Positions 23,622 through 26,600 of a stretch of 64,000 nt of DNA are shown one piece after another. Numbering within the stretch: the stretch's first letter is position 1; each line of letters begins with the position of its first letter. Made by a program: the position numbers and the translations under genes. This stretch comes from an uncultured Rickettsiales bacterium (GTDB lineage Bacteria > Pseudomonadota > Alphaproteobacteria > Rickettsiales > RI-342), in assembly GCA_964435165.1 (NCBI GenBank), contig CAYSXY010000003.1, positions 20,111 to 84,110 on the forward strand, in the 5' to 3' direction. Under the pieces are notes generated by a model that made no database searches, was not told the origin of the DNA, and was given only the letters and a program-made list of their open reading frames with translations.

Positions 23622-26600
23622 TTAATCGTCAGAAGGTGCGGCGTGCTGTGCCGAGCCTGGAAAATGTACATTGCCTGAAAAGACCGGCAAATCGTCATCA
23701 TCCTCATCGTCGTCATCCATAATGCTTTGAGGTTTCGGCGCGGAATTGCCGTTGGTCGGTAAGGCCTCCTCTACAGCCCCATTGGCAGATTCTTGCGCTG
23801 TGTCATTGGGTGCGCTAGCCTCAACTGATTCCATATCGTCTGATTCACTGGCAGTAACGTCAGTTGATGATTGGTCATTGCGATCTTGCGTGCCTTTTGG
23901 TTCGGGGATGGCCGGGCCAAATTTCTCGGGCCTTGCAGGTTTGCCCTGACGTTTTGCGGCAATTTCCTGTGCTTCACGTTCCAGTTCTGCTTCTGACCCG
24001 GCTTTTTTGCCGGATTTCGCTCCTGCCGGTGGTTTAGGCATTGGCGGTTTATGCGACAGACTAAACAGGTTAGTTGCTGCAGCAGGTGCGGCAGGTTTGC
24101 CATGAGACTCTTTAGCTGCGGGTTTTTTATCTGTTGGCGATGGTTTAGTCTTAGCCGTTGATGCTTGATTCGTATTGCTGTTGGTGTCTGCTGGTTTCTC
24201 TGCAGATGCCTGTGTCTTTTTCTGTGCCTGTGATGGCGGCGCTGCAGGTGGTGTTGCTGCTTTCGTTTTTGCCGTCGGTGCGTTTTGTGGCGATGGTTTA
24301 GAGCCGGATTTCGCTTCTGCCTGAGGTTTTGCGGCGGCTGCCTCCTCCTTCGGCTTCTCTGTTGTCTGTGCTGTCTGCGGCGCTGCAACGGATTGCTCAG
24401 ATTGTTGCGGCGATTTTGGGGTGGGCGGCTTGGGAAGGGGCGGCTTGCTTCCAGGTTTCATACCGAACGGACTTGCCCCTTCCGTAGATTTGACAGCTTC
24501 TTTAGGAGCGGTTTTATTTTTTGGTGCCGCTGGTTGTGGTTTTTCTTCCATAGATTCTGCCTTTTCTTTTACTGATGGCTTCGTGGTTGAGGCATTTTGA
24601 GGCTTCTCTCGTTGCTCCCGGCGTTTTTGTGCTGCCGCCAACCGTTGTTTGCGACGCGCTTGACGCTCCTGCGCTTTTGTTTGGGTTGATGGTTGATCAG
24701 GCTTTTCTTCCGCGCGGTCTTTCTTATTTTGTGCTGTGGCGGGCTTAGCAGCCACTTTATTTGGCGCGTCAGTTTTCTTGGCTGCTGCCTTGGGCGGAAT
24801 AGGCGGCAAACCGAAGGGTGCGGTTTGTGTATTTGTCTGGTGTTGTGCTGTGTTATTTCCTGCTTTTGCCGTCTCTACAGCCGCAGGCGTCTCTGCCTTG
24901 TCAGAATGATGCGCAGGGTTTCGATTGTCAGACGATGACTCATCTTCCGTTGATTGGGCATCATTATTTGTTGCCACATCTGCCTGATCTTCATTGTCCT
25001 GCCGCTCCGTCTTAGCTGCTACCTTTTTCTTCTGAGGGATGGGAGGTAGATCGAATGGGTTTGTCGCTTTGTCTTTTGCGGGTTTAGGTTGGCTTTTTTC
25101 CTGTTGTTCTGGTGGTTTGGCATTGCTGTCTTTTGCCTTAGGCGTTTCCTCTGGCTGGTTGCTCTCAGCAGTATCGTTATTATCCTTCTTAGCTGGTGCA
25201 GATGTGCCCGCAGGCTGCGGATTCGCGGTTTTGGTTTGTGGCTTGGCCGATTCTTTCGCCTCAGTGTCAGCTGAAGATGCTTTTTTCTTCGGCGGAATCG
25301 GCGGCAGATCAAACGGGTTAGCTGCTTTTTTCGCAGGTGCCTTAGCTGCTTTATCTACTGATTGTTTATCCTGTCCACTATTGGTGTTTTCGTTAGAACT
25401 TGCATCACCGTCATCTGTATTTGATTCGTCTGGCTTCGACGTTTTCGGTGTATTTGCGTCTGTTTTCTTTTTCGGTGGGATAGGCGGCAGGTCAAACGGA
25501 TTGGCTTTTGCCGCCGGCTTCTTCTGGTTCTTTTCTTGTGTTTCTTTTGCAGGATTCGCTGCCTCTTTGGCAGTGCTATCCTTGTCTTTATCTGTTTTCG
25601 ATGGCGTACTACCGGTTTTTTTCTTCGGCGGAATCGGTGGCAGGTCAAATGGATTAGCCGATTTCTTGGCTGTGGCTTTCTCGCCTTTTGTCTCAGACGG
25701 TGTCGCCTTGGCTTTATCCTGTGTTTGCTGTTTTACTTCCGGTTTGGCATCTGCGCCCGGCTTTTTGGTTGGAACAGGTGGTAAGTCGAAGGGGGTGGCT
25801 TTTTTATCTGGTTTTGAGCCACCAGCGGCCGCTTTGTCTTTCGGTGCGTTGGCATCTGATTTCTTAGCTGCAGGCGGCAGGTCAAACGGATTGGCTTTGC
25901 CAGAATCCTGCTTTGATTCCACTTTTTTTGCGGTCTCTTTCGGTGGTGGTGCGGTTTTACCCTTATCGGGCGCCGGTGGTTTAGATTGCTTTGCCTCGGG
26001 TTTTTTATCGTCTGGCTTGGCTTTGGGCTGTTGTTTCGCTTCATCCGGCTTGGCATCCGGTTTATCCGCGTCTTTTTTCTCACCGTCTTTTTTGCGTGGA
26101 TCATATGGTTCTTGCTGCGGCACATGGGTCGGATCCATCAGGCGCTTGGTGAAAAATGAATCCTTATAATAGGCAATCTTCTTACACCGGATGGGCGGCT
26201 GTGATTCGATCAGGATGATTTCTTCATCACGTGGAAGGCCGATCACTTCCTGCGGCAGCAGCAGTGCGCGCTGGGTTTCCGAGACGTGTTTGGTCCGTGA
26301 GGCCGGGTTCATATCCATGAATTGCGGGCGGTTATGTGATTCCTGCTTCACGGTTTTATTTCCGATCATCTGGGAGATCAGGTTCGCTGTTTCAATGTTG
26401 TTGGCGGCAAAGGTAATCCGGTAGGTGGCGTTGGAGAGGAAGGAGTTCATCCCGGCTTCTTCATAAATTCCTTTGAGCTGCTGCGTATCCTGCACAATGA
26501 GGAACAGGCGAACGCGATACCCCCGAAAATAGGCGATGCCTGCCTCGAACTGAGGCATTTTTCCAAGGGTGGGAAACTCATCGAGCAGGAATAAGACGCC

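Follow-up and report, generated by a model that had tools for sequence, protein, structure and literature searches.

A long, predicted disordered C-terminal tail with repeated NPF motif islands on the VirD4 coupling protein of an uncultured Rickettsiales bacterium

To our knowledge, substrate choice by the coupling proteins of type IVA secretion systems is poorly understood, especially in the effector-translocating rvh systems of the Rickettsiales, for which we know of no adaptor and of few mapped contacts between effectors and the coupling protein RvhD4. VirD4-type coupling proteins usually have 500–750 residues, and their variable C-terminal domains select substrates in TraD, Agrobacterium VirD4 and DotL (PMC7434980). 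In the F plasmid, substrate specificity comes from the TraD tail, whose turn, terminal Phe717 and acidic residues fit into a pocket of TraM (PMC7555446). RvhD4 appears in published work as a protein of ~64 kDa. Here we describe a virD4 gene from an uncultured Rickettsiales bacterium (assembly GCA_964435165.1), found in a 64,000-nucleotide stretch of contig CAYSXY010000003.1 (positions 20,111 to 84,110; hereafter the window), whose predicted product has 1400 residues. Coupling proteins with variable, substrate-selecting C-terminal domains are known already; what is new in this protein is the huge expansion of that domain and the multivalent NPF motif that it carries.

The gene is a complete open reading frame (ORF) of 1400 codons plus a stop codon, without interruption (Table 1). 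The ORF list thus confirms the single stop-free frame reported in an earlier reading of this DNA (the original prediction), and the motifs quoted there, APTGSGKGVG, FLLDEFPTLG and IAYYKDSFFTKRL (at ~aa 550–562), are all found in the translation. The protein scores 984 bits against the NCBIfam equivalog NF010472 for the VirD4 component of the type IV secretion system (T4SS; cut-off 728), a match spanning aa 60–630. The Pfam domain T4SS-DNA_transf covers aa 127–571 (E = 5.8e-149), TraG-D_C is also matched, and TrwB_AAD_bind at aa 233–544 (E = 1.2e-21), together with a helical block at aa 238–352 in the AlphaFold2 (AF2) model, indicates that the all-alpha domain is present. The closest relative of the core in the PDB is Cag5/Cag-beta (8DOL). 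In an alignment of 55 relatives (A1), used to map conservation, P569, Q571, E572 and D575 near the core end are invariant. Amino acids 1–579 are a bona fide Rickettsiales-type VirD4 coupling protein (VirD4/RvhD4 type): the core has the Walker A and B motifs, the all-alpha domain, the NF010472 score and the virB-type gene neighbours of a type IV coupling protein, and a two-helix N-terminal anchor is recognized from hydropathy and the AF2 helices. At 1400 residues the protein lies outside the usual range of 500–750, which is a descriptive feature and does not disqualify it.

The remaining 821 residues form the tail. The original prediction had it begin at aa 566; a long non-conserved tail is indeed present, but its start is placed here at aa 580, because family-wide conservation extends through QEPYDPRKK (aa 571–579). 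The composition of aa 566–1400 agrees with the earlier description of a K/P/A-rich segment almost devoid of aromatic residues outside a repeated module: K, A and P account for 15.6, 16.0 and 14.4 %, W and C are absent, the only Y (aa 574) falls within the conserved region, and of the 12 F seven belong to the repeated module xPF[DG]LPP. K+R make up 17.4 % versus 14.8 % for D+E. The last 100 residues (aa 1301–1400) are acidic, with a net charge per residue of −0.16 to −0.24, and the chain ends in ...AAPSDD; in the remainder of the tail the net charge per residue ranges from +0.02 to +0.14, with net positive stretches at aa 601–850 and 1001–1300. The last 15 residues are net acidic in 64 of the 121 relatives. 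There is no hydrophobic segment within the tail. Its reading frame has no stop codons, and the other two sense frames have 7 and 73. The original prediction had proposed a check for disorder, and both approaches used here point to it. All 50-aa windows between aa 551 and 1400 fall on the disordered side of the charge–hydropathy boundary, and the AF2 model of aa 1–1200, built from the family alignment, has a folded core followed by segments (aa 593–1048 and 1074–1200) with a predicted local distance difference test score (pLDDT) of ~30 and no secondary structure. The exception is a helix at aa 1050–1072 (pLDDT ~85), so that the tail is predicted to be disordered throughout except for one Arg-rich helix.

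The DNA that encodes the tail has some unusual features of its own. Positions 24001–26000 of the window show an extreme AT skew (−0.55 on the plus strand), because the coding strand has A-rich Lys, Ala, Pro and Thr codons. A 376-aa ORF on the plus strand (25039–26169) runs antisense to the tail, with many GGRSNG stretches that correspond to NPFDLPP read from the opposite strand; it is not a gene and simply arises from the low-complexity repeats. A scan for terminators and promoters at the 3' end of virD4 found nothing.

Database searches with the tail returned very little. There was no match within it in Pfam, NCBIfam or the PDB, none by tblastn against 72,556 plasmids, and none by phmmer against 1.84 billion representatives, a search that also missed the known long-tailed relatives, probably in part owing to composition filters. 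A word-indexed homology search recovered the window protein itself only, and a synthetic query of concatenated motifs gave just two matches (E ~7–8), both uninformative. No paper in the literature searched links the NPF motif to type IV secretion. Within these databases and this literature, the earlier statement that the tail architecture is not a described family holds. Automated annotation calls these proteins simply 'VirD4', which hides over half of the polypeptide.

Comparison with the close relatives shows how unusual such a length is. The window protein is about twice the usual size, as originally stated: 113 of 121 close relatives have 552–647 aa. A core-based search found six further long proteins (865–1000 aa) among 120 relatives, all others falling within 552–647 aa. 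Long in-frame tails besides that of the window are thus present in six database relatives (P0002, P0003, P0004, P0006, P0014 and P0080) and at one locus from a genome scan (L001), which comes from a metagenome-assembled genome labelled 'uncultured Rickettsiales bacterium' and encodes a core 76 % identical to that of the window protein, followed in frame by a tail with at least 10 GGNPFDLPPLPPKPAAAKPE units. Seven of the eight long-tailed proteins, that of the window among them, group as one clade in a neighbour-joining tree built from the cores, and P0080 falls outside it. The tails of the 113 ordinary-length relatives have 13–67 residues and are made of 17 % K, 22 % P, 20 % A and 11 % E. The orthologue comparison proposed in the original prediction did not find the tail as a separate downstream gene in any relative; the long tails are all in frame and vary in repeat number, and at four loci of short-tailed relatives the gene after virD4 is unrelated. 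These results do not support the earlier alternative of an effector-like polypeptide fused to its coupling protein, since there is no separate tail gene and the short tails have the same composition, some of them with one NPF. Because the short tails share this composition, the long tails form one clade and the L001 array is recent, the long tail seems to be the short, disordered C-terminal domain that the family already has, enlarged in situ, rather than a gene fusion. At one locus of a short-tailed, NPF-ending relative (L011, 9788–10588, plus strand), a 266-aa ORF without a Pfam match overlaps the virD4 stop codon by 4 nt; this ORF is not conserved at the other loci.

The main island within the tail has NPF as its core. 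In the window it takes the form NPFDLPPIPPKKK and is present in seven good copies, namely five of NPFDLPP[IAV]P.KKK, one of TPFDLPP and one of APFGLPP (aa 645–1004), which are followed by two degenerate copies. Every window motif is followed by KKK. The exact NPF (five copies) and its TPF, APF and SPF variants all lie in the region with pLDDT ~30, that is, as accessible peptides in a disordered chain, as in ligands of EH domains. The spacing between copies is irregular (32–86 residues), regular spacing being found only in young arrays, which argues for motifs strung like beads and against a repeat fold. The four window copies that share NPFDLPPIP differ from each other at 4–8 of 27 nt, with every difference at a third codon position; these copies therefore appear to be old, with the peptide under purifying selection. 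A second conserved island, RPEKFGPAIPEPK, is a candidate docking motif as well: 11 of its 13 residues are identical in P0002, and its forms in L001 and P0004 are TKFGPAVPPP and NSYGPAVPAP. The peptides KANPFDLPPIPPKKK (NPF type) and PEKFGPAIPEPK are candidates for a partner search.

The same kind of island recurs in other long tails, in lineage-specific surroundings. Tails on cores that are 74 % identical can be aligned at the motif islands only. Of the seven other long tails, six have repeated islands (2–11 copies each) and P0014 has none, and other lineages have the variants NPFDAP, NPFEAPP, NNPFAKP, NPFAAP, NPFDMP and NPFELPP. The NPF counts in six tails (5, 10, 10, 11, 2 and 5) were reached by none of 5000 shuffles, and the two NPF of P0004 by one of 5000. 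Most Phe residues of the NPF-bearing tails, and in most of these tails almost all of them, lie within [NS]PF or the (PE)KFGPxIPxP island; in the window protein 7 of 12 do so. The L001 tail includes an 81-bp minisatellite (11963–12752; 94 % identity, at least eight copies) that encodes the NPF unit and is broken by a run of N, and its true repeat number is probably variable; P0002 has triplicated 39-residue units. Taken together, the sequence comparisons indicate that the NPF motif islands are under selection. In the P0004 (L012, 8001–11003) and P0006 tails, many NPF copies are replaced by repeats of RRR[AV]PPPPPP(L)S and LPPPPPP, which resemble ligands of SH3, EVH1 or profilin.

The most informative result is provided by P0080 and its ordinary-length relatives. 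P0080 has a 425-residue tail with five NPF and is sister to a clade of VirD4 proteins of ordinary length (583–627 aa), in which the chain closes with a single NPF[E/K], 2–11 residues before the C terminus and 21–59 residues after the core. In all, a single terminal NPF[EK] is present in 11 of the 113 ordinary-length relatives.

Our preferred reading, held with moderate confidence, is that the tail is a multivalent array of short linear motifs that the in-situ expanded disordered domain presents to a cytoplasmic partner. The tail is a flexible chain, predicted disordered, at the cytoplasmic face of the inner membrane, and each NPF island would be a short linear motif, with an Asn-Pro turn, an aromatic anchor and then usually an acidic residue, that could be bound by a folded domain of the partner; secretion substrates, adaptors or chaperones, and another secretion ATPase are the candidate classes. 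Relatives of ordinary length would carry one such hook at the tip of a ~20–60-residue tail, and the long-tailed clade would have multiplied it to seven copies per chain in the window protein, or ~42 per hexamer. Many copies could strengthen binding through avidity, widen the capture radius ('fly-casting') and keep partners at high concentration under the secretion channel. The partner itself is probably bacterial, because a single NPF on a tether of 21–59 residues would reach only the bacterial cytoplasm. The multivalent docking scaffold envisaged in the original prediction is likewise favoured by the predicted disorder, the repeated peptide islands and the retention of the peptide where codons and spacers diverge. 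A motif that ranges from one to about a dozen copies per coupling protein would point to a discrete receptor–ligand pair that is accessible with a 10-residue peptide. It would also supply a bacterial case in which a secretion machine gains avidity through multivalent short linear motifs, and the family would offer a natural series (0, 1, 2, 5 and at least 10 motifs on tails of 20–820 residues) for the effects of valency and tether length on substrate capture.

Several observations weigh against this reading. The 315-residue tail of P0014 has no NPF, so that the motif is not required for a long tail. The NPF-bearing clades are few, and independent support comes from about two clades plus repeated lineage-specific amplification. 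In a comparison of six loci, no gene is conserved beside virD4 across those that bear NPF, and no candidate partner was identified there. Most of the tail has a mildly basic charge, whereas the C-terminal domains described for other coupling proteins are acidic. The AF2 models of window aa 1–1200 and of P0013, a short protein that ends in NPFEAA, show no confidence bump at any NPF and therefore do not support docking back onto VirD4; they are uninformative on docking in trans, and as a negative on docking in cis they are weak, because the P0013 model is mediocre (pLDDT 66).

The motif was also looked for outside coupling proteins. A DNA-pattern scan of metagenomes for NPFDLPP[ILMV]PP gave six matches and no VirD4 tail; about two independent matches are expected by chance for this ~40-bit pattern. 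Five of them lie in the folded core of VirB4-like ATPases of the candidate phyla radiation (CPR) type, in the context RxNPFDLPPIPPD; the sixth falls in an unrelated protein from an actinobacterium. The ATPases (L004, L005, L007, L008 and L009) have ~600–650 aa, with RxNPFDLPP[IL]PPD in the P-loop domain; the 10-residue match to the tail motif is judged coincidental. VirB4 and VirD4 cores both contain a conserved NP[LMF] element (CYNPMDW in the window VirD4).

That the long protein is an artefact of assembly or annotation, with virD4 joined to a downstream gene by a frameshift or a lost stop codon or with its repeats misassembled, is extremely improbable. Repeat-rich DNA is prone to misassembly and the L001 array does contain an N gap, but in seven further independent assemblies the tail follows QEPYDPRKK directly and in frame, two separate contigs carry the P0006 tail with 100 % identity, and the downstream genes at the four loci of short-tailed relatives are unrelated. 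Collapse or expansion during assembly is unlikely in the window itself, because the repeats have diverged in DNA and Tandem Repeats Finder detected no long array. A largely neutral origin deserves more weight, although we still consider it unlikely. The tail would then be a tolerant linker inflated by slippage, at most an entropic spacer or bristle, with the NPF carried along from an ancestral C-terminal motif. The near-perfect 81-bp repeats of L001 and the triplicated units of P0002 are signs of recent amplification, the spacers vary freely in both sequence and length, P0014 does without NPF, and HMMER detects no homologue. A neutral expansion would not, however, readily account for the window copies, which are old, as their diverged spacers and 4–8 synonymous changes in 27 nt show, and yet have an unchanged peptide; for the persistence of NPF across sequence-unrelated repeat units (NPFAKP, NPFAAP, NPFDMP); for the conservation of the single-copy PEKFGPxIPEP island; or for the open tail frame (821 codons in the window) of each of the eight long-tailed proteins, P0080 as well as the seven of the clade.

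The other alternatives keep a function for the tail and change its target. Multiple NPF in a disordered Pro-rich region are a hallmark of EH-domain ligands such as epsin, LPPIPPK matches the class II SH3 consensus PxxPxK, and P0004 and P0006 have runs of RRRxPPPPPP and LPPPPPP. The array could accordingly mimic eukaryotic motifs and target the endocytic or actin machinery of a host, the tail being either cleaved and secreted or threaded while tethered; an unfolded chain of 820 residues, with an inferred contour length of ~300 nm, could span the envelope. Rickettsiales is the label given to the relatives, and effectors of this order often rely on motif mimicry (PMC10028187). We regard mimicry directed at eukaryotes as improbable nonetheless: the topology puts the tail, which has no hydrophobic segment, in the bacterial cytoplasm, the single NPF on 21–59-residue tails of ordinary VirD4 proteins would be unable to reach a host, no further ORF with two or more NPF was found in ~170 kb of sampled loci, and neither a cleavage site nor a secretion signal was recognized. 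The window contains housekeeping biosynthesis genes and L001 has flagellar genes. The specific proposal that VirD4 feeds its own 820-residue tail through the channel or sheds it by cleavage, as a tethered cis-encoded effector acting on host EH and SH3 proteins, is very improbable; were it true, a secretion ATPase would be its own substrate, and the NPF/PxxPxK/poly-Pro array a genuine mimic of endocytic-adaptor motifs. Quite improbable, too, is an electrostatic tether, in which a K-rich tail (net +0.1 per residue) would bind anionic lipids or nucleic acid, with the F, L and I of the motifs as interfacial anchors, and so localize or cluster the machine or hold DNA. The net positive charge over aa 601–850 and 1001–1300, the KKK after each window motif and the non-specific DNA binding by coupling proteins (PMC7555446) would fit such a role. 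Against it, D+E nearly offset K+R, the scan of window ORFs turned up no relaxase, and the orthologous motifs NPFAAP, NPFEAA and NPFDAPS have no basic cluster; the conserved part is therefore NPF and not charge. A histone-H1-like DNA-binding tail, considered for its K/A/P-rich composition, was rejected since acidic residues nearly balance the basic ones.

Table 1. Features of the virD4 gene, its tail and the upstream secretion genes (window positions)
Feature	Position	Strand	Basis
Complete virD4 ORF	23622..27824	-	ORF list, NF010472
N-terminal membrane anchor, two hydrophobic helices (~aa 18-44 and 87-105) with intervening loop	27510..27773	-	hydropathy of aa 1-100; AF2 helices 2-44 and 81-111, pLDDT ~90
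Cytoplasmic ATPase core (nucleotide-binding and all-alpha domains), aa 127-571	26112..27446	-	Pfam, PDB 8DOL
Walker A APTGSGKGVG, aa 167-176	27297..27326	-	translation; invariant columns in alignment A1
Walker B region FLLDEFPTLG, aa 412-421	26562..26591	-	translation; D415, E416, F417 and P418 invariant in A1
QEPYDPRKK, aa 571-579, final family-conserved element (core end)	26088..26114	-	A1 columns
C-terminal tail, predicted disordered, aa 580-1400 (821 aa)	23625..26087	-	no domain matches; charge-hydropathy; AF2
NPF copy 1 KANPFDLPPAAKKSDA, aa 643-658	25851..25898	-	sequence
NPF copy 2 KATPFDLPPVPTKKPG, aa 675-690	25755..25802	-	sequence
NPF copy 3 SANPFDLPPIPPKKKT, aa 722-737	25614..25661	-	sequence
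NPF copy 4 KANPFDLPPIPPKKKT, aa 773-788	25461..25508	-	sequence
NPF copy 5 AANPFDLPPIPPKKKA, aa 834-849	25278..25325	-	sequence
NPF copy 6 ATNPFDLPPIPQKKKV, aa 920-935	25020..25067	-	sequence
NPF copy 7 QTAPFGLPPIPPKAAA, aa 1000-1015	24780..24827	-	sequence
Arg/Gln/Lys-rich helix AQERQARRKQRLAAAQKRREQRE, aa 1050-1072, sole tail element confidently predicted as structured	24609..24677	-	AF2
Degenerate motif ASPFGMKPGSKPPLPKPPTPK, aa 1117-1137, includes KPPLPKPP	24414..24476	-	sequence
Degenerate motif NLFSLSHKPPMPKPP, aa 1252-1266, includes KPPMPKPP	24027..24071	-	sequence
Second conserved island RPEKFGPAIPEPK, aa 1298-1310, single copy	23895..23933	-	common to P0002, P0003, P0004 and L001
Acidic block DDDDEDDDD, aa 1370-1378	23691..23717	-	translation; 9-bp tandem repeat
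Upstream same-strand T4SS genes	28045..36788	-	Pfam
Two virB2 pilins	36121-36450, 36465-36788	-	Pfam
virB4	33584-35992	-	Pfam
virB6	31980-33455	-	Pfam
virB8	31084-31800	-	Pfam
virB9	30254-31087	-	Pfam
virB10	29025-30245	-	Pfam
virB11	28045-29028	-	Pfam

The virD4 gene is the final one of a same-strand operon, in the order virB2 (two copies), virB4, virB6, virB8, virB9, virB10, virB11 and virD4, surrounded by chromosomal housekeeping genes that include aspS, thiG, aroQ, aat and guaB. The chromosomal locus is syntenic, a further sign that the long protein is real: the arrangement virB4-B6-B8-B11-virD4 adjoins PAP2, aroQ, GDPD and aat in the window and, variously, at loci L003, L010 and L011. The T4SS to which virD4 belongs is a chromosomal, vertically inherited, virB/rvh-like system. 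Among the window ORFs scanned, virB3, virB5 and virB7 were not recognized, and neither TraM nor an oriT was seen in the window. The tandem VirB2/TrbC pilin paralogues upstream of virB4 match Pfam TrbC with E = 2.6e-14 and 1.3e-16. VirB10 has a strongly acidic cytoplasmic N terminus and, past its membrane helix, an unbroken run of ~15 prolines (~aa 105–120), PEPPPPPPPPPPPPPPPE. Elsewhere in the window (40960–42721, minus strand), a bactofilin gene overlaps an M23 peptidase gene and lies directly downstream of it, a pairing typical of cell-shape or stalk modules.

Among described systems, the eukaryotic NPF/EH-domain adaptors (epsin and the partners of Eps15) are like the window tail in having multiple NPF in long disordered Pro-rich regions, often with acidic residues after the motif. 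They differ in location: the window tail is cytoplasmic, on a bacterial inner-membrane ATPase, and EH-domain binding and exposure to a host are topologically unlikely, so that the resemblance may reflect convergent use of a turn-plus-aromatic peptide. In FtsK and FtsZ, small conserved peptides are offered to partners by Pro-rich linkers that are long, evolve fast and vary widely in length, and FtsK shares the FtsK-HerA ATPase fold with VirD4. Among coupling proteins, an FtsK-type subfamily with large linkers has also been described (PMC7434980). The FtsK linker, however, connects the membrane domain to the motor and does not follow the motor, and it has no NPF array.

Closer comparisons are with the C-terminal extensions of coupling proteins, although the window tail belongs to none of the types described. 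That of Legionella DotL is a docking platform for adaptors and effectors (PMC7434980; PMC7280309), which binds IcmS/W, DotN, LvgA and others and wraps folded adaptors as a defined structure. DotL belongs to the type IVB systems, whereas the window tail has no fold in AF2, no similarity in Pfam, NCBIfam, PDB or HMMER searches of the tail, and no adaptor genes in the window. The acidic C-terminal domains of Agrobacterium VirD4 and others, which are reported to widen or tune the effector repertoire (PMC7434980), belong to the same family and occupy the same position; they are Glu/Asp-rich and have tens to ~150 residues, whereas the window tail is 5–10 times longer, has a net basic charge outside its last 100 residues and is built on an NPF array. 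The TraD tail of the F plasmid has an extension of ~140 residues with one motif at the very C terminus, in contrast to the 821 residues, at least seven internal copies and PSDD end of the window tail; the terminal aromatic residue is absent from the window VirD4, no TraM-like gene was seen among the window ORFs scanned, and there is no sequence similarity, the TraD model TIGR02759 matching the window core only (42 bits versus a cut-off of 521). By analogy, the F-plasmid TraD tail and its partner TraM would still be the closest mechanistic precedent for the NPF tail, as TraD is a coupling protein of the same superfamily, with a flexible cytoplasmic C-terminal extension that bears a short docking peptide, and NPF[D/E] is physicochemically alike.

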